Of a stretch of DNA of 64,000 bases, positions 27,022 through 64,000 are shown one piece after another (within the stretch, counting starts at the first letter, position 1; every line of letters starts with the position of its first letter). The translations under genes and the position numbers were made by a program. The stretch lies in the NCBI GenBank assembly GCA_049519355.1, contig JBEKQV010000003.1, positions 83,646-147,645 on the forward strand. Reading direction: 5' to 3'. The notes under the pieces were generated by a model that did not search any database, was not told the origin of the DNA, and saw nothing but the letters and a program-made list of their open reading frames with translations. This DNA is from Candidatus Microgenomates bacterium. GTDB taxonomy: Bacteria; Patescibacteriota; Microgenomatia; UBA8517.

Positions 27022-27528
27022 TTATTTCAAATTGGCAAGGGTTCTTTTATTAATCTCAATATTCTCCTCGGCAGCTTGAATTGCAGCAAAAGCCAAATGC
27101 TCCGCACTCATTGCATCCGAGTGGGCGTTGACATTCCCCAATTTAGCCGCAATCTCAGCCAGTTCCCTGACATTCTCACAAATCTCGGCAGTTTTTTGCG
27201 GAACCTCAATCGCCGTCAAAAGACCGGCCTTTATTTTTGCTTTGTTACCCATCTTATAGGCTTTCATTACCTCTTCAAAAGCACCCGAATCGCGGTCCGC
27301 AAGCTCGATAAGTTCGGCCCCGAGTTCGCTAGCCCTTTCGGCAATCCTAATCATCTCATCCTGAACGTGAGGATATTTTTTATTGCCAATCGTCAGATTG
27401 CAAACCATCTCGGTTAGCGATGCCGCCATAGCACCGACCACAGCCGCAACAGCTCCACCGCCGGGTGTGGGTGTTTTTGAGGAAACCTCATCCAAAAATT
27501 CTTCTATTTTTTGATCTTTAACTTTCAT
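27022..27528 (-). CDS. Formiminotetrahydrofolate cyclodeaminase-like protein (FTCD C-terminal domain, stand-alone)
   Basis: PTPGGGAVAAVVGAMAASLTEMVCNLT is the hallmark of the cyclodeaminase/cyclohydrolase family. Confidence 0.7.
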   Translation of the reverse strand: MKVKDQKIEEFLDEVSSKTPTPGGGAVAAVVGAMAASLTEMVCNLTIGNKKYPHVQDEMIRIAERASELGAELIELADRDSGAFEEVMKAYKMGNKAKIKAGLLTAIEVPQKTAEICENVRELAEIAAKLGNVNAHSDAMSAEHLAFAAIQAAEENIEINKRTLANLK

Positions 27529-55760: not shown

Positions 55761-55897
55761 GGACTTTTTGGAATTGTCGGTTGGCAGAAGATATGAAATT
55801 CAGCATAAAGGTGTTATAATACCCTTACCTCGGCTAGTCTGAGGCAGACGCAAGTCGAAACTTCTTACTAAAGCTTCGTTTGCGTACTCAAAACAGA

Positions 55898-56320
55898 ATG
55901 GCAAAAAAGGTTAAAGTAGTCGTCAAAATCAATTTACAGGCAGGGGCCGCAACCCCCGCTCCTCCCGTCGGAACTGCATTGGGACAGCACGGTGTTGCCA
56001 TCATGGATTTTGTTAAGCAGTACAACGACAGAACCAAAGATATGAAAGGGCAGGTCGCCCCCGCAGTAATTACAATTTATGAAGATAGATCCTTCACCTT
56101 CACCATTAAAAAAGCACCTGTCGCCGACATGATTAAAAAGGCGATGGGAATTGAAAAAGGTTCGGGTGTCGCCCCAAGAGAAAGCCCGGGTTCCTTAACT
56201 AAGGCACAGGTAAGAACCATTGCCGAGGAAAAATTGTCCGATCTTAATACCACAGATGTGGAAGCCGCAATGAAAATTGTCGAAGGAACGGCCCGTTCAA
56301 TGGGCATAACTGTGCAATAA
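55898..56320 (+). CDS. rplK: 50S ribosomal protein L11
   Basis: [33 protein letters not shown] is a canonical L11 N-terminus. Confidence 0.9.
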
Positions 56321-56322
56321 AC

Positions 56323-57114
56323 ATGGGAAAAATGAAAATGGCCCCAGTTGGGGAAAACAAAAATAAAGAAAAAAGTGAGAAGGCTCATAAAGCGGAAGCC
56401 GAGAAAGTTCATTTGTCGGGGCTTAAGGGAGGCCAAAGAGTCAAAATGGTGGAAGTTGAAGAAACACCGACGGCTGAAACTACCGCCGAGGGCGAAGCCG
56501 TCAAAAAAGGCGGAAGAAAAATTGTTGAGAAGGTCAGAGGCAAGAAATACGTTGAATCAAAAAAGAAATTTGATAACACCAAAACCTACTCCGCCACCGA
56601 GGCAATTAAACTGGTTAAAGAAACCTCGTACTCAAAATTTGACGGAACCGTCGAGCTTCATTTGATTGTTAAAAAGACGGGAATTTCGGCACAGGTATCC
56701 TTGCCTCACCAGGCCGGTAAAACCAAGAAAATTGAGGTTGCTTCCGACGAAACCGTCGAAAAGTTGAGATCCGGCAACATTGACTTTGATATTTTGGTTG
56801 CCACCCCTGAGATGATGCCAAAACTCGTTCCTTTTGCCAGGCTTCTGGGACCCAAAGGCCTCATGCCAAATCCCAAAAACGGAACGCTTGTCCCTGATTC
56901 CAAAAAGGCTCAAGGCTTCTCATCCAACAGTGTCGTCCTTAAAACCGAAAAAGAGGCGCCCCTTATTCACACCGTAATAGGCAAGGTCAGCCAGGACGGT
57001 AAAGAACTTGCCGAAAATTTGGAAACAATCTTTAAAGCCTTCGGAGGCGGAAAACAGATTGACAAAGCCTATATTAAGGCTACAATGGGGCCGTCTGTTA
57101 AAGTAAAGATTTAA
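56323..57114 (+). CDS. rplA: 50S ribosomal protein L1 with a ~75-aa Lys/Glu-rich N-terminal extension
   Basis: L1 core from KKYVESKKKFDNTKTYSATEAIKLVKE...ELHLIV...PHQAGK. The upstream in-frame region MGKMKMAPVGENKNKEKSEKAHKAEAEK... is low-complexity. Confidence 0.85.
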   Translation: MGKMKMAPVGENKNKEKSEKAHKAEAEKVHLSGLKGGQRVKMVEVEETPTAETTAEGEAVKKGGRKIVEKVRGKKYVESKKKFDNTKTYSATEAIKLVKETSYSKFDGTVELHLIVKKTGISAQVSLPHQAGKTKKIEVASDETVEKLRSGNIDFDILVATPEMMPKLVPFARLLGPKGLMPNPKNGTLVPDSKKAQGFSSNSVVLKTEKEAPLIHTVIGKVSQDGKELAENLETIFKAFGGGKQIDKAYIKATMGPSVKVKI

Positions 57115-57127
57115 CAGGAGAAAAGCT

Positions 57128-57391
57128 ATGATAGAATTTTGTAAAATACCCGGTTATTATCCGGGACATATGGGAGAAGGGCCTAATTCATTAGGGCCGG
57201 GTGCAGTAGATCCTAAAGCACGTGCGATTATCGCCGATGCGGTCAGGAGAATTAATGAAGAATACCAACAAAGCGCGAGACAATTCTCGTCTACTGTTAC
57301 CAGGGTTACCGGAACAGCCGAAGCAGACCGTGCAGCCGGTCAAATGCTAAAACCACCTACTTCATTTATGAAAAAGGGAAGCAGAGGTTGA
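57128..57391 (+). CDS. Questionable small ORF (87 aa) in the rplA-rplJ spacer, with a good SD (AGGAG 8-9 nt upstream)
   Basis: The ORF has an upstream SD, but the region is GC-rich and dense in hairpins (CCCGGTTATTATCCGGG; GGCCTAATTCATTAGGCC), so it may be leader RNA rather than protein-coding. Confidence 0.2.
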   Translation: MIEFCKIPGYYPGHMGEGPNSLGPGAVDPKARAIIADAVRRINEEYQQSARQFSSTVTRVTGTAEADRAAGQMLKPPTSFMKKGSRG

Positions 57392-57421
57392 CATATTGGT
57401 CCGGCTGTCAGATAATACCTA
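57388..57421 (+). promoter_or_regulatory. Sigma70-like promoter for rplJL: TTGACA-18-ATAATA
   Basis: gaggTTGACAtattggtccggctgtcagATAATAcc. Consensus -35 and near-consensus -10 about 100 nt upstream of the rplJ ATG. Confidence 0.45.
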
Positions 57422-57483
57422 GGTCCGAAGAAAGTATGTTTTCCGAAAGGATGTAAACCATACCGAGGCAAAGTTTAGATTAT

Positions 57484-57508
57484 GCGCGCCTCGGGCGCGT
57501 TTTTTTTT
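57484..57508 (+). terminator. Intrinsic-terminator-like hairpin (GCGCGCC-TCG-GGCGCG + T9) in the rplJ leader; candidate L10-leader attenuator
   Basis: GC stem of 6-7 bp followed by TTTTTTTTT, ending 12 nt before the rplJ start codon. Confidence 0.45.
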
Positions 57509-57520
57509 GGATAAATCAAA

Positions 57521-58057
57521 ATGAAAAAGGCAGAAAAAGTCACATTTGTAGATAACTTAAAAGAAGAGCTCAAAGGAGCCAAATCCGTAGTTTTGGTCAA
57601 CTATGCCGGTTTGGGCGTTAAAGCCCAACAAGAGCTTAAAAAGAGACTTTCCGAAAGTGGAGCCAAGATGGTTGTCGTTAAAAACACTCTTTTCAAGCGA
57701 GCAGGTGAAGCCGCAGGTATTGATAAGGAACTCCTAAGCGATTCAATTCTTTCAGGCCAAACCGCGTTGGTAATTTCCAGCGAAGATCCCATTACCCCCA
57801 TCCAAACTCTCGGCAAATTTGCCAAGGAATTTACCAGCGAGGCAGGACTCCCGATTCCTAAATTTAAAGTCGGTGTTGTTGAAGGCTCATTCCAGGACGA
57901 AGGCTCTTTGGTTAAACTCGCCTCTCTTCCGGGACGCGACGCCCTTCTCGGGCAGCTACTTGGAACACTTATGGGTGCCGAATATGGTTTGGTCGGAACA
58001 TTGAATGCAAATTTGCAGAAACTGGTTTATGTCTTAGACACAGCCAGTAAAAAATAA
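57521..58057 (+). CDS. rplJ: 50S ribosomal protein L10
   Basis: 178 aa. MKKAEKVTFVDNLKEELKGAKSVVLVNYAGLGV is L10-typical. Confidence 0.9.
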   Translation: MKKAEKVTFVDNLKEELKGAKSVVLVNYAGLGVKAQQELKKRLSESGAKMVVVKNTLFKRAGEAAGIDKELLSDSILSGQTALVISSEDPITPIQTLGKFAKEFTSEAGLPIPKFKVGVVEGSFQDEGSLVKLASLPGRDALLGQLLGTLMGAEYGLVGTLNANLQKLVYVLDTASKK

Positions 58058-58076
58058 GATAAGGAGGTGAAATAAG

Positions 58077-58484
58077 ATGGCAGAAGAATCAAAGAAAGTA
58101 TCAGAAAAAGTAGAAAATATCGTTTCCGATGTTGCAAAACTTTCCGTAATGGAGTTGTCCGAATTGGTCGGAGCCTTACAGGAAAAGCTAGGAGTTTCCG
58201 CAGCTATGCCGGTTGCCGCAGCAGCGGCCCCAGCTACGGCAGGAGAAGCCCCGGCGGCTGATGCAGGCAACGCAACCCAAACTGTTGTTATGACAGGTTC
58301 GGGTGCCAATAAAATTGCTGTTATTAAGGCTTTGAGGGAAATTAATCCCAATTTAACCTTAATGGATGCAAAAGGCATGACCGAAACACTCCCCGCAGAA
58401 GTTTTGAAAGACGCTAAGGCGGAAGACGCCAAAAGCGCTTCAGAAAAACTGAAGGCAGCCGGAGCAACTGTTGAGCTAAAATAA
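58077..58484 (+). CDS. rplL: 50S ribosomal protein L7/L12
   Basis: N-terminal dimerisation helix, Ala/Pro hinge AAAAPATAGEAPAA, C-terminal domain KIAVIKALREI...LKAAGATVELK. Confidence 0.9.
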   Translation: MAEESKKVSEKVENIVSDVAKLSVMELSELVGALQEKLGVSAAMPVAAAAAPATAGEAPAADAGNATQTVVMTGSGANKIAVIKALREINPNLTLMDAKGMTETLPAEVLKDAKAEDAKSASEKLKAAGATVELK

Positions 58485-58654: not shown

Positions 58655-60346
58655 TTAAATTATATGAAGTATTTGGCCTATGTTTTGACCCGCTGCCAGC
58701 CCGGCTTTTATTTTAGGCCATACAACTTTCGCCGTAACCATTTTTGGCTCCTCTACTTTTGTCAAGTCTAAAAGGCCAAGTTTTTCCAAATCAAAAACCG
58801 AAAACAGATCCAATCCGGCAACATAAACCAAGTTTGATATTTCTGTTCCCCGATTATCCTCAGACATAAGGAAATCCAATACAGTCTCTTGTTCGATATA
58901 ATCAATTGCATCCGAAGTCGGTGCATAACCGCTCGCATCGGTTAGCGGAGTGTTTCTCCTAAATATCCGCATCGCCCTTCTAAAGGAATTATCTACGGCT
59001 TCCTGAAATTTGTCTTTGTCTTCAAATAGACTTTTTAGCGGCACTCCAAAATTTCTTTCTGAATAAAGGTCCGCAATGGCCAGAAAAACATCCTTAAAAC
59101 TTCCGCCCGCCATTTTACTTTCCAACCCGGTAAAAAAGTAAGGTTCCGCTCTTCCTTTCATCCCCGCAACCATTTCTTGTGTTTTACCTTCGATATACAT
59201 TGCGGCTCCTTCCGAAAGAATGCCTGTTCTGCCCATCGATTTTTGTTCAAACAACTTTAACGAAACAGGTCCGGCCAGCTCCTTGTTTACATGCCGCAAG
59301 ACATGCCCTTCGATCTCGTGGGCTAAAACCGTCAAAGTATCAACCAGTCCCCTTTCAAAATTTTTCGGGATAGCAATTTTTCTGACCACATCAGAACCGG
59401 ATTTATACTGAACCGCCAAAGTAGACCTGCCGTCTTCGATAACCACATTCCACTTCCGGTCTCCCGAATTAAGTCCATATTCATTAAGAACCATTTCCGC
59501 CAGTACCTTCGCCTGTCCGGAGTTTACCAATACCGAGTTAAACTTCCGGTACTCCGGAGTTTCTATGGGTAATTCCGCTTTCCTTTTTGATGCATATTGA
59601 CGGAGCCGCCCGGGAATACTTTCAAACATTCCTTTGGCGTTAAATTCCGACCCAATTCCATTGAGAAAATGGTCTATTCTCTCCAGCTTCCTCGAATCCA
59701 CTCCCTCATTTTCATAAAGATTTGCAAGTGCCACATTTACTCTTTTCCTGTAAATATTTAAGATTACGCTTTGTCCCTCAAAAAAATCTCCATTATTTCC
59801 GGATTGGGAAATTTCTTTTTTTAGCTCGGCCTTAAGAATCCTGAGATTTTTAATTTCTTCGGCAAGGTCTTCGGGATCAACAACTCTTTTAATTCTTACG
59901 GGATTTTCAACTCCGCCTACATCTCCTTTTGATGCAATCAGTTCTTCCGTAAATTTATTTTTTGCCCACTCATAAGAAAAATCATGAGCTTTTTCCCTTT
60001 TATCTTTGGGAATCTTCGATAAATCCGCTTCCATAAAAATTCTCTCGATGTCCTTTGCGTCAACCTCGCCTAAACGCGGCGTCTCCTTACCGCCTAAATA
60101 GATGTCGGTAAAAAGTTTCTTCCCTTCTTCGGTTGTAAAAGCTCCTGGGTAAATTGTATGCTCCGTAATTTCAAAATGTGTGGCTCTCTCATATTTGGTA
60201 AAAAGCCCTTCCTCGAAAACTTTCAGCCGGACTTTTTCATCCAATGACAACTCCAGGGGCTTAACGGCTAATAACGATTCCATATTTCCAACAGCTTCTG
60301 AAGCTCTCAGAGGGTACGAATAATCGGATTCTGTAGTACCGCTCAT
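58655..60346 (-). CDS. HExxxH metallopeptidase-like protein, inferred DUF1704 / MATCAP-like (gluzincin carboxypeptidase family)
   Basis: 563 aa. LAHEIEGHVLRH (H-E-x-x-x-H spacing) and, ~40 aa downstream, GILSEGAAMYIEG resembling the QEGLA Glu-ligand motif of DUF1704. It is the last gene of a tight operon with three ATP-grasp ligases. Confidence 0.45.
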   Translation of the reverse strand: MSGTTESDYSYPLRASEAVGNMESLLAVKPLELSLDEKVRLKVFEEGLFTKYERATHFEITEHTIYPGAFTTEEGKKLFTDIYLGGKETPRLGEVDAKDIERIFMEADLSKIPKDKREKAHDFSYEWAKNKFTEELIASKGDVGGVENPVRIKRVVDPEDLAEEIKNLRILKAELKKEISQSGNNGDFFEGQSVILNIYRKRVNVALANLYENEGVDSRKLERIDHFLNGIGSEFNAKGMFESIPGRLRQYASKRKAELPIETPEYRKFNSVLVNSGQAKVLAEMVLNEYGLNSGDRKWNVVIEDGRSTLAVQYKSGSDVVRKIAIPKNFERGLVDTLTVLAHEIEGHVLRHVNKELAGPVSLKLFEQKSMGRTGILSEGAAMYIEGKTQEMVAGMKGRAEPYFFTGLESKMAGGSFKDVFLAIADLYSERNFGVPLKSLFEDKDKFQEAVDNSFRRAMRIFRRNTPLTDASGYAPTSDAIDYIEQETVLDFLMSEDNRGTEISNLVYVAGLDLFSVFDLEKLGLLDLTKVEEPKMVTAKVVWPKIKAGLAAGQNIGQILHII

Positions 60347-60388: not shown

Positions 60389-61330
60389 TTAAGAAAATAG
60401 CGATTTTAAGATGTCTTTTGTGGCATCATATTGGTGCCCCTTAGAGTCCATCCAATGCAAATCATAACCCGGATCTGTGTTAAGTTCGATTATGCAGTAC
60501 GGAGAATTTGCCTTAGTTATATCGGGGCAAATTATGTCTACACCCGAAAACCGGAGGTCAAAAAGTTTAACCGCACGCAAAACCATCTCCCTAAATTTGG
60601 GATTAACAATATTTGTTACATCCTCCACCACTCCGCCGGTGTGAATATTTGCGTTTCTTCTCATCAAAATCTTTTTTCCTTTGGAGGGAATATCGTTTAT
60701 TGTTAGATTCTGCTCCGCCAAAACTCTTTCGACTTCAAAACCCAACTTTAATGAATCTCCTCCCCGGCCGATATTATATTTGGCAACAAGCTCAGAAATT
60801 TTTGTTTTTCCGTCTCCGATAATAGCCGGCGGGACACGTCTGGCAACCGCCAAGATTTTTCCGTCAAGAACCAGGAAACGGAAGTCCTCACCCGGAAAAA
60901 ACTCTTCCACCAAAACCTCATCATAACTTTCCCGTATTTTTTCAAAAGCTTTTTTTAAAACCTCAAGATTTTCAATTTTGACAATTGCCATTTTTCCACC
61001 CAGTGAAGTATCCGGTTTGGTGACCAAAGGAAAATTTATTTTGCCGGTTTTTATTGCGGCCGAAACTTCTTTCCATTCTCCCGTTAAAATTCCTCTTGGC
61101 GCCGGGAAACCTGCATCTCTAAGAACCCTTTTTGTTAAATCTTTCCTTTTAACAATTTCAAAGTCGACTATCGAGTTAAAAGGAAAATGCTTGCCGATTG
61201 TCAAAACACTTTTACCACCTTTTGATATCTTGTAGACTCTACGGTCGGACGGATAAACCTCAACCAAATATCCCAATCTTTCGGCTTTTTCAGCAAAAAC
61301 CTCCATCAGCATTTTGTGTTTGGTTTTCAT
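60389..61330 (-). CDS. ATP-grasp ligase, cyanophycin-synthetase-N-domain-like
   Basis: 313 aa. FPLVTKPDTSLGGKMAIV, VLVEEFFPGEDFRFLVLDGKILAVARRVPPAIIGDGKTKISELV (CphA-like RVPA..GDG segment), IIELNTDPG. Confidence 0.55.
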   Translation of the reverse strand: MKTKHKMLMEVFAEKAERLGYLVEVYPSDRRVYKISKGGKSVLTIGKHFPFNSIVDFEIVKRKDLTKRVLRDAGFPAPRGILTGEWKEVSAAIKTGKINFPLVTKPDTSLGGKMAIVKIENLEVLKKAFEKIRESYDEVLVEEFFPGEDFRFLVLDGKILAVARRVPPAIIGDGKTKISELVAKYNIGRGGDSLKLGFEVERVLAEQNLTINDIPSKGKKILMRRNANIHTGGVVEDVTNIVNPKFREMVLRAVKLFDLRFSGVDIICPDITKANSPYCIIELNTDPGYDLHWMDSKGHQYDATKDILKSLFS

Positions 61331-62220
61331 AAATTTATGAGAAATTTTAAAATCTCCCTTTCAACATTGAAACCCGTGTCTCTTTTAATCGAGTTCCACT
61401 TGGGCGCCGAATTTACCTCCAAAACAAATAATTTTTTATTTTTGGTTTCCAAAATATCTACCCCCGCAATATCAATAGATAATGCTTTTGCGGCTTTTTC
61501 CGCCATACTAGAATACTTAGACGGAACTTTTTTGTAAGAACGATTTGGGGGAAGTTCTTTAGAAAATCTATTCACCCAACGCTGCGGACGAACAATAGCC
61601 GCTTTTGCTTTTTCGCCAATTACAAATACTCTAATTCTTATACTCGCCTTAATAAATTCCTGAACAATAAACCGCTCACATGTCAACTTGCGGGCTTTAA
61701 GTTTTTTGACAAGCTGGGCTAATTCCGATTGATTTCCCGGCGACCAGACCGCCCTTCCCCTTTTACCGTTAGTCCCTTTAACAACAAGAGGAAAACCAAT
61801 TTTATCCGGGGCTTTTGTAACCATCCGGCGCAAGGTCATAAACATCGTATGCGGAACAGGCACTCCACTTTCATAAAGAAGCATTGTTTCCAATCCCTTC
61901 GGCAGCGGAAGCTTAACAAACTCAGGTTTCTCATATAATCTATCCACTATCCTTATACCTCTCCTTTTGGCATAGTCGGCAACGATGGCAGCATTTTCCG
62001 TGCTATCACCCAGAAGTCTGAAATATATGACACCAAAGTCGGCTAGATTCCTATCGCCAATTTTTATAGACGATCCTTTGCCGGCAGACTCAATATCATA
62101 TTCGAGATCGCTAAAGGCCGCTATTTTCAGGTCGGTGCCAAGAACTTTTGCCTCCTTTGAAAACGCGGAAAGATTACTGACTTTTCCTCCCGTTAAAATT
62201 AAAATTTTCTTGTTTTTCAT
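61327..62220 (-). CDS. RimK-type ATP-grasp ligase (alpha-L-glutamate ligase family)
   Basis: 297 aa. FPLVVKGTNGKRGRAV, FIVQEFIKASIRIRVFVIGE, GVDILETKNKKLFVLEVNSAPKW. Small N-terminal pre-ATP-grasp domain as in RimK. Confidence 0.75.
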   Translation of the reverse strand: MKNKKILILTGGKVSNLSAFSKEAKVLGTDLKIAAFSDLEYDIESAGKGSSIKIGDRNLADFGVIYFRLLGDSTENAAIVADYAKRRGIRIVDRLYEKPEFVKLPLPKGLETMLLYESGVPVPHTMFMTLRRMVTKAPDKIGFPLVVKGTNGKRGRAVWSPGNQSELAQLVKKLKARKLTCERFIVQEFIKASIRIRVFVIGEKAKAAIVRPQRWVNRFSKELPPNRSYKKVPSKYSSMAEKAAKALSIDIAGVDILETKNKKLFVLEVNSAPKWNSIKRDTGFNVEREILKFLINL

Positions 62221-63506
62221 TCTGAATTTGGGTTAACCAAAAAACCCGCCATATCGCTTCTACCCATCAAAAATCTGTTTGACATCTTTGACCTATCCGT
62301 GACCGAAACAAAGGATTTGATTCTTTTGCCGGCAACGACATATTCCACTCCTATGACAGGCCTTGCCTGCAATCCGCCGGCGGAGCGGTATTTATCTCTC
62401 CACAAGATATTTCCCTTAACCAAAAGTCCCAATTCTTCGGCAAGTTTCTTATCTATTGAACTCCTTACGGCACCTGTATCTACCCTCGCCATAACTTTAA
62501 CCCTCTTGGATTTGTCAAAACTGTAGACCTTAATTCCCTCCAAACCTTTAAGAGTTTTAATACCTTCCTCAACCGCTCTTCTATTCTCAAACCTTCCGGC
62601 AAAAAGAGCTTTGGCGATCATAACTCCATGTTCCGCATCGGTAACATTAAGATCTTCAACCCTTTCAAGCCTCTTTTTAAGACCTTCCATATTGGCAAGT
62701 TGTATCTGAAGCCCGGGTTGTGCGTTAAGTTCCAACACCATGGGACCCTTATCGGGATGAAGCACTATATCTACTCCTGCATAACCCAACCCCGAGGCAA
62801 TTTGGGCCCGTACCGCAGTCTCCAAAATGGCAGTCCAATTGGGTATTTTTATTCCTCGGAGTTTCCTCTCCGTCCCGGGTTTGAATACAATTTGCTCTCC
62901 GTGCCAAATGGCGGTTGTGGTAATTCCCGTTGCAATGTCTACTCCGACTCCAATGGCACCTTGGTGCAAGTTCGCCCTTCCTCCACTCTCTTTTGTAGGC
63001 AAACGAAGCATCGCCATAACCGGAACTTTGTTAAAAACGATTATCCGAATATCCGGAGTCCCCCGGTATGCCCATCTCCTAAAGACTTTTGCGCGGCCGA
63101 CATATTCCTGAACGAAAGCCACATCCGGAACATTTCCCATAGAGAAAGCGCCTTCCAATATATCAAGTGTATGAAGCTTAAGATCATCAATTTTTACGCG
63201 TGTTTTCTGGGTAGTCATCCAGCCGCTATCCTTGAGCTTTTTTTTGACAACAATGATTCCCTCTCCACCCATACCGCGACTTGGCTTCAGGGCAAATTCA
63301 TCGGGAAGCGTGTTCCAATCAAACTCATAGACATCATTAGGATTCATAAACCTCTTATAAATTGCAGGGTGAGGAACTTCAGCCTTTTTGAGTACTCTTG
63401 CGGTCTGAATTTTGGAATCGGCGATAGCCTTACCACGCCTGGAATTATACCTGTAGGCAAAAAGCTGGGTTCTGGAATTCAATCCCAAAATTGAGGATAT
63501 TTTCAT
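62217..63506 (-). CDS. Fusion: ATPgrasp_ST (alpha-L-glutamate-ligase-related) ATP-grasp domain + C-terminal retropepsin-like aspartyl-protease domain (RimK-associated Zn_protease family)
   Basis: N-terminus LGLNSRTQLFAYRYNSRRGKAIADSKIQTARVL...FALKPSRGMGGEGI. C-terminal ~110 aa VKVMARVDTGAVRSSID...FLMGRSDMAGFLVNP with the D-T-G-A catalytic signature. Confidence 0.65.
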   Translation of the reverse strand: MKISSILGLNSRTQLFAYRYNSRRGKAIADSKIQTARVLKKAEVPHPAIYKRFMNPNDVYEFDWNTLPDEFALKPSRGMGGEGIIVVKKKLKDSGWMTTQKTRVKIDDLKLHTLDILEGAFSMGNVPDVAFVQEYVGRAKVFRRWAYRGTPDIRIIVFNKVPVMAMLRLPTKESGGRANLHQGAIGVGVDIATGITTTAIWHGEQIVFKPGTERKLRGIKIPNWTAILETAVRAQIASGLGYAGVDIVLHPDKGPMVLELNAQPGLQIQLANMEGLKKRLERVEDLNVTDAEHGVMIAKALFAGRFENRRAVEEGIKTLKGLEGIKVYSFDKSKRVKVMARVDTGAVRSSIDKKLAEELGLLVKGNILWRDKYRSAGGLQARPVIGVEYVVAGKRIKSFVSVTDRSKMSNRFLMGRSDMAGFLVNPNSE

Positions 63507-63511
63507 AATTT

Positions 63512-64000
63512 TTAACTCCGGATGAGCTTTCTAAATCTGTAGAATTCCATTACCCTGAGTCCGGTATATTTACCCAAAATCAGATCCGCCGCCGCAACCA
63601 GAATCAGAGAAACCTCCGGATTAAGAAGAACATATTGCTGCAAGGGTTGGAATGTTAGGAACAAGAATGAAATTAAAGACAAAAGAAGTGTCTCAAAAGT
63701 TAGATTTAAGGCGGTTTTAACGCTTTTACCAAGCTGTACTCTGGTAAAGTCCTCTGCCAAAAGCACCAGGAAAAGAACGGCGAAGATAGAAACGTTGGCA
63801 AGGTCCGAAAAATTAAGAACCGGCGCTAGGAATAGAACCCCCAAAACCCCGAGGACCACAGCCCAAAGAATGAACGCCATCCTCGGCAGATATTGGAGCT
63901 TGACCTTAAGCTTCCTGAGAATCATCCTCATGGCAGTTGAGACGACTACAATAACCAGGAAAAGTCCGATTCCGACGATTGGACCTGTCGCTACAAAAAC
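63512..64000 (-). CDS. Partial: C-terminal region of a polytopic membrane protein, candidate 7TM_transglut-type protein; the ORF continues beyond the right window edge
   Basis: The frame stays open to base 64000 (…VFVATGPIVGIGLFLVIVVVSTAMRMILRKLK…). At least 4 TM helices, then YTGLRVMEFYRFRKLIRS*. 5-bp gap to the ATPgrasp_ST gene. Confidence 0.4.
   Translation of the reverse strand, partial: VFVATGPIVGIGLFLVIVVVSTAMRMILRKLKVKLQYLPRMAFILWAVVLGVLGVLFLAPVLNFSDLANVSIFAVLFLVLLAEDFTRVQLGKSVKTALNLTFETLLLSLISFLFLTFQPLQQYVLLNPEVSLILVAAADLILGKYTGLRVMEFYRFRKLIRS

Follow-up and report, generated by a model that had tools for sequence, protein, structure and literature searches.

An ATP-grasp ligase fused to a retropepsin-like domain in Patescibacteria, in a locus resembling the Rlo and Rim systems

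Bacterial retropepsins have been described together with ATP-grasp ligases in the Rlo and Rim systems. The rloABC genes of Pseudomonas encode a secreted retropepsin (RloA), a protein that joins an inactive transglutaminase to a seven-transmembrane (7TM) domain (RloB), and a cytoplasmic ATP-grasp protein (RloC) (Lormand et al., mBio 2025, PMC12239564). RloA cuts glutamate-rich sequences, and its null phenotype is suppressed by deletion of rloB or rloC; rlo mutants have cell-shape, hypo-osmotic, and ampicillin phenotypes, and in 2025 Rlo of Pseudomonas was linked to survival of osmotic stress, to the formation of biofilms, and to tolerance of antibiotics (PMC12239564). RimB, a cytoplasmic retropepsin, binds RimK, stimulates it, and cuts off poly-Glu tails, and in a RimB-RimK hybrid, DP2392 of Desulfotalea psychrophila, the protease is active on such tails; hybrids of this kind occur mainly in Flavobacteriales and Rhodobacterales (JBC 2025, PMC11957791). 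Here we describe a locus of the Patescibacteria, or Candidate Phyla Radiation (CPR), in which an ATP-grasp ligase and a retropepsin-like domain form a single protein encoded beside a 7TM gene. It lies near one end of a 64,000-nucleotide stretch of contig JBEKQV010000003.1 from a Candidatus Microgenomates bacterium; we refer to this whole stretch as the window.

Among known systems, rloABC and RimBK come nearest to this locus. It holds the same modules as rloABC in one operon: a PF05618 protease, a 7TM_transglut domain, and an ATPgrasp_ST or TIGR02291-like ligase. The fold of the protease domain is nearest to those of RloA2 and RloA, with the ERPVI and DRS motifs in common. They differ as follows: RloA is a separate protein secreted by means of a signal peptide, whereas the protease of the fusion is the C-terminal domain of a cytoplasmic ligase; the inactive transglutaminase domain that RloB has in the periplasm is missing from the CPR 7TM protein; additional ATP-grasp genes follow the fusion; and the CPR proteins fall far or just below the cutoffs of all three NCBIfam models related to Rlo and RimK. 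Like RimBK, the CPR protein combines a RimB-type retropepsin and an ATP-grasp domain of the alpha-L-glutamate-ligase type in one polypeptide. In RimBK, however, RimB occupies residues 1-163, N-terminal to RimK, whereas the CPR protease is C-terminal; the RimBK ligase is a true RimK family member and that of the CPR fusion belongs to ATPgrasp_ST; no 7TM partner is described for RimBK (PMC11957791); and the lineages, Flavobacteriales and Rhodobacterales against Patescibacteria, are different. The opposite domain order, the other ligase family, the other lineage, and the lack of a described 7TM partner argue that the CPR fusion arose independently of RimBK. From these sequence comparisons, the locus reads as a rearranged Rlo/Rim-like system with an independent, reversed fusion.

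Our literature searches found no paper that describes an ATPgrasp_ST-retropepsin fusion; automated Pfam annotation in databases already gives both domains for many members of the family. These ATP-grasp neighbourhoods were reportedly first analysed comparatively by Iyer et al. in 2009.

A conserved fusion of two enzyme-like domains

The fusion is real, it keeps the catalytic motifs of both domains, both folds can be assigned, and its synteny is conserved. The polypeptide consists of an ATPgrasp_ST ligase, a conserved linker, and a retropepsin-like domain (Table 1). These domains, their boundaries, and the D-T-G-A signature had all been proposed in the original prediction, and Pfam, a separate scan of the C-terminal region, and fold searches agree with it throughout. 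The sequence reveals no signal peptide or transmembrane (TM) segment. GGAG lies 9 nt 5' of the ATG, within the last codons of the 7TM gene, whose stop codon is separated from the fusion by 5 bp, just as predicted; at the other end, the stop codon overlaps the start of the next ATP-grasp gene by 4 bp (ATGA).

Table 1 Features of the fusion locus, with positions in the window.
Feature	Positions	Strand	Basis or remark
Whole fusion open reading frame	62217..63506	(-)	429 aa + stop, ATG start
ATP-grasp ligase domain, residues 14-284, ATPgrasp_ST / RloC-like	62655..63467	(-)	PF14397
Conserved helical/flexible linker, residues 285-317	62556..62654	(-)	Invariant residues and model pLDDT
Retropepsin-like domain, residues ~318-426, RimB/RloA family	62229..62555	(-)	PF05618
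Catalytic-motif codons D343-T344-G345-A346	62469..62480	(-)	Reverse complement GAT ACA GGT GCC
3' part of 289-aa 7TM membrane protein	63512..64000	(-)	PF14402; gene continues past window end
297-aa RimK-family ATP-grasp	61327..62220	(-)	PF08443, 79 bits; start overlaps fusion stop
313-aa ATP-grasp like the ligase domain of cyanophycin synthetase / GshAB	60389..61330	(-)	TIGR02068
563-aa HExxH protein, operon end	58655..60346	(-)	No Pfam match itself

Independent assemblies from JGI, ENA, and Logan contain 22 contigs that encode the identical protein. Among its homologues, we took the best 120 clusters listed (70-100% identity), and all 120 are 425-452 amino acids (aa) long with an invariant DTGA. 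A search of one genome per species gave 249 loci that encode a relative, and the best 80 of these (58-85% identity) were analysed. In all 80, a single alignment spans at least 95% of the query, without a stop in 79; D[TS]GA is present in 80 and a GRxD/N motif in 79, and none of the 80 is a split-gene version. The linker is itself conserved, with a mean column identity of 0.76 over residues 291-325 and with H293, G294, F302, G304, R305, G315, K317, and E323 invariant in the region. The 22 contigs, the full-length homologues, and the conserved linker together exclude a frameshift or misassembly, the artefact against which the original prediction had warned, in favour of which we found nothing, and to which we give virtually no chance.

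The record titles of the loci give the names Woesebacteria, Microgenomates, Woykebacteria, Blackburnbacteria, and "Patescibacteria group", and nearly all the named ones are Patescibacteria/Microgenomates. The comparison of orthologous loci thus places a conserved fusion in this lineage, where it is the normal state. The earlier expectation that ligase and protease are separate adjacent genes elsewhere fits the characterised Pseudomonas rloABC and rimBK-type loci (PMC12239564, PMC11957791) but not this lineage, where the fusion is the rule.

Many fusion loci (including L008, L010, and L013; 60-75% identity) stand under the title "uncultured Gammaproteobacteria bacterium" in Third Party Annotation (TPA) records. 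One further locus is titled "Alphaproteobacteria" and another "Woesearchaeota archaeon", both of them of the Patescibacteria type and within the same range of identity. All of these titles look like placeholder or wrong taxonomy.

The N-terminal domain matches Pfam ATPgrasp_ST (PF14397) with 223.3 bits against a cutoff of 31.4, covering positions 4-277 of the 278 in the profile. The best NCBIfam model for the fusion is TIGR02291, "alpha-L-glutamate ligase-like protein" (269.2 bits, cutoff 314.2); the RimK-family model TIGR00768 gives 53.2 bits against a cutoff of 143.4. A model of the full-length protein has a predicted local distance difference test (pLDDT) score of 79.8, and the fold matches of its ligase are ArgX/LysX and RimK. 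In an alignment to RimK (5zct/7qys), the RimK motifs for binding of nucleotide and Mg2+ (DIR, RxNLHxG, the D of GVDI, and ExN) are kept, and K74, D152, R177, N179, H181, D246, E259, and N261 are invariant across 40 homologue sequences. The motifs and the modelled fold mark this domain as an intact amino-acid ligase, "alpha-L-glutamate ligase-like" (RloC/ATPgrasp_ST) in kind.

The match at the C-terminus is fainter in a scan of the whole protein, which gives weak hits to three aspartic-protease families over residues 337-426; PF05618 (Zn_protease / RimB-like retropepsin) reaches 26.6 bits there, with a cutoff of 27. When the C-terminal 134 aa are scanned by themselves, PF05618 rises over its cutoff, to 30.5 bits, and the C-termini of 21 of 21 aligned homologues match it as well (best E 2e-10). 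The RloA3 model NF052264 matches the fusion weakly (25.9 bits, cutoff 210). A profile of the domain finds 9g59 (RloA2, E 2e-6), 9g58 (RloA), 2pma (Legionella Lpg0085), Rickettsia ApRick, and Ddi1 in the PDB. Because the full-length fold search returned ATP-grasp matches only, we modelled the C-terminal domain separately with AlphaFold (pLDDT 81.5); Foldseek then ranked RloA2, Lpg0085, RloA, HIV-1 protease, and Ddi1, in this order, each with a probability of 1.00.

Invariant residues of the domain include D343-T-G-A, R382 (ERPVI), R405 (DRS), and G415-R416-x-D418, and both ERPVI and DRS recur in RloA2. The domain thus has the marks of a clan AA retropepsin: DTGA at 343-346, GRSD at 415-418, and a predicted retropepsin fold. 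It is less conserved than the ligase, with a mean column identity of 0.67 vs 0.88. Consistent with the family assignment in the original prediction, sequence and model together identify the C-terminal domain as retropepsin-like, of the RimB/RloA type.

The 7TM partner and relatives of the protease domain

The 7TM gene lies directly upstream of the fusion in 78 of the 80 loci, and the remaining two are truncated by contig ends. The part of it inside the window matches PF14402 (7TM_transglut) with 61.9 bits; the complete gene, on a longer contig (L001 9126-9995), gives 93.1 bits over residues 93-286 of 289. The protein consists of a signal peptide, about 70 aa outside the membrane, and then seven TM helices; a transglutaminase domain is absent, and the NCBIfam RloB model NF052267 (cutoff 900) reaches 42.9 bits. 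By the positive-inside rule, we read its topology as N-terminus out, with the basic loops and the C-terminal tail in. The 7TM protein is unusually conserved across species (55-91% identity; L001, L005-L079). An extracellular motif, RVDITQKS, recurs after a Pro/Thr/Ser-rich stretch, and a cytoplasmic C-terminal motif, GLRVxExxRFR, is common even to a version of the protein in Chloroflexota.

This Chloroflexota version emerged from an exhaustive search with the protease domain, in which 407 cluster representatives matched with E of at most 1e-3. Among them are proteins of about 430-460 aa with the domain fused to a ligase, shorter ones of about 105-190 aa that either stand alone or are fragments of genes, tandem duplicates, and many proteins of 350-490 aa in which the domain lies on the N-terminal side, in the order signal peptide, retropepsin, 7TM_transglut. 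In Chloroflexota cluster P0171 (L085 2275-4370; L086, L087), a protein composed of a signal peptide, a retropepsin, and a 7TM domain is encoded ahead of a separate ATPgrasp_ST protein of 304 aa. All three modules are homologous to those in the window, with identities of 42% for the protease (over 96 aa), 30% for the 7TM domain (over 200 aa), and 39% for the ligase (over 283 aa), and the order of the 7TM and ligase genes is that of the CPR locus. The protease, in contrast, is on the extracytoplasmic N-terminus of the 7TM protein and not on the cytoplasmic ligase. The Chloroflexota two-gene system carries automated annotation only.

Recurrence of the three modules with the protease attached to either partner strengthens a functional link among all three; since the protease then stands on different faces of the membrane, it also prompts one to ask where the substrate lies. 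Together with the 7TM synteny, the Chloroflexota protease-7TM fusion supports the earlier suggestion of a membrane-associated complex. Among the tandem duplicates, P0122 consists of two retropepsin domains alone, and P0130 has such a pair ahead of a 7TM domain; judging from their sequences, each would be a pseudo-dimer within a single chain, the protease being homodimeric as a rule. This is consistent with a need for two copies of the protease, as in the predicted homodimer.

Other genes around the fusion

Downstream of the fusion are two further ATP-grasp genes, linked by 4-bp overlaps, so that the operon contains three different ATP-grasp ligases. TIGR00768 gives 126 bits on the 297-aa protein, below its cutoff of 143, and an ATP-grasp matching this query lies downstream of the fusion in 72 of the 80 loci. 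The 313-aa protein, which is similar to CphA, matches positions 204-471 of TIGR02068 with 210 bits; it is accessory, occurring at 6 of 80 loci.

The 563-aa protein is likewise accessory (3/80 loci). H343, E344, H348, and E379 are invariant in its family, and the distant members P0284 and P0286 match PF08014 (MATCAP/DUF1704) with E 3.9e-7. A single-sequence search of the PDB gave no match for it, and a profile of 16 sequences gave chance-level matches only. From the transitive Pfam matches, it is probably a divergent MATCAP/DUF1704-like metallopeptidase; if so, it would be a second "eraser" beside three ATP-grasp "writers".

On the other side, past the window end, a 334-aa single-TM protein (L001 8033-9037) is encoded immediately before the 7TM protein. 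None of the 80 related loci contains its gene, which is probably unrelated to the system; neither this nor an upstream 82-aa open reading frame (ORF) has anything credible in Pfam at E up to 10. Elsewhere in the window, a second ORF bearing DTGA (27022..27528) encodes an FTCD_C protein, and its motif is a chance occurrence. The 3' end of the operon converges with an rplK-rplA-rplJ-rplL cluster (55880-58484, (+)), in which an 87-aa ORF between rplA and rplJ (57128-57391) has no Pfam match; the L10 leader is expected there.

Proposed function and its rivals

Arguing by analogy, we think it reasonably likely that the fusion is a cytoplasmic bifunctional enzyme of a Rlo/Rim-like system, docked at the membrane, which adds and trims acidic residues. 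The N-terminal ligase would most likely add glutamate or other acidic residues to the carboxylate of a peptide or protein. The retropepsin would pair with a second copy to build its active site; since two copies are needed, the fusion is expected to act as a dimer or a larger assembly. The protease would most likely trim the product of the ligase and so determine how long it is or how quickly it turns over, which is the role of RimB towards RimK. The enzyme would be made together with the 7TM protein and probably dock on its cytoplasmic basic loops and conserved C-terminal tail, the 7TM protein serving as a partner and possibly as a conduit for the ligase product. In the source genome, it would be co-transcribed with the two further ATP-grasp ligases and the MATCAP-like peptidase. 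Glutamate ligation, cleavage of acidic tails, dimerization, 7TM docking, and the substrate are all features that we infer, the chemistry being modelled on RimB/RimK and RloA. That the two domains would act on the same substrate, as the original prediction argued from the fusion, agrees with the published biochemistry of these enzymes.

Several observations weigh against this proposal. The nearest relatives of the protease domain outside the CPR are extracytoplasmic, which implies that the site of action differs between the CPR fusion and those systems. The fusion ligase scores under the trusted cutoffs of both TIGR02291 and TIGR00768. No ORF in the window has an acidic C-terminus or a run of Glu, so the window offers no candidate substrate. 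Finally, the D. psychrophila RimBK hybrid failed to glutamylate P. fluorescens RpsF in vitro (PMC11957791), and a fused ligase therefore need not act like RimK.

In orthologous three-module systems, the same protease domain is found in three positions: secreted (Pseudomonas RloA), at the outer end of the 7TM protein (Chloroflexota), and fused to the ligase inside the cell (Patescibacteria). A tentative idea, in which we have little confidence, is that the ligase makes an acidic peptide, or a molecule tagged with a peptide, which crosses the membrane by way of the 7TM protein and can be trimmed on either face; the 7TM_transglut family would then be a hitherto unrecognised exporter of peptides made by ATP-grasp enzymes. 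Such passage would explain the three positions of the protease; if true, the fusion in the CPR would represent "trim before export" within this family.

Alternatively, the system could modify a cell-envelope molecule, for example a precursor of peptidoglycan or of a surface polymer handed to the 7TM protein, while the protease processes a different envelope substrate. The Pfam family is named "sugar-transfer associated ATP-grasp", the partner is an integral membrane protein, and the shape, hypo-osmotic, and ampicillin phenotypes of rlo mutants point the same way (PMC12239564). Yet its fusion places the CPR protease in the cytoplasm, ArgX/LysX and RimK, to which the ligase is structurally nearest, extend peptide or protein carboxylates, and no glycosyltransferase was found in the conserved core of the related loci; we regard an envelope substrate as unlikely.

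It is also conceivable, and in our judgement quite unlikely, that the retropepsin-like domain is mainly a regulatory or oligomerization module that activates or dimerizes the ligase and cleaves little or nothing. RimB is bifunctional, in that it also promotes poly-Glu synthesis by RimK (PMC11957791), and the lower conservation of the protease domain relative to the ligase would fit such a role. Strict retention of the catalytic motifs (DTGA in 120 of 120 clusters, D[TS]GA at every analysed locus, and GRxD/N at all but one) is not, however, what is expected of a purely structural domain.

A self-processing precursor, in which the retropepsin frees itself at the Glu-containing linker (…FENRxAxEEGIKT…) like a retroviral polyprotein and leaves separate enzymes, seems improbable to us. 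The linker is modelled with pLDDT < 50 at residues 304-315, E314 is near-invariant beside the invariant G315, and RimB and RloA do cut glutamate-rich sequences. However, the linker offers two consecutive Glu only, whereas the described RimB substrates carry tails or linkers of at least six, and the passages retrieved on the purified RimBK hybrid make no mention of self-cleavage (PMC11957791); moreover, the 80 loci hold no version in which the enzymes are encoded separately.

In its anatomy, the CPR locus is a minimal and rearranged form of the Rlo system, from which the transglutaminase domain is gone and in which the protease is fused to the ligase. It suggests that ligase and protease work as one unit, that the indispensable partner is the 7TM domain and not the transglutaminase domain, and that among related systems the protease is able to act at either face of the membrane. 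As a compact system of two proteins, it may lend itself to biochemical reconstitution and would place constraints on the chemistry of Rlo and on the role of the 7TM protein. That it is conserved across a large lineage of uncultured bacteria, whose genomes are very small, implies that it is important to those cells.

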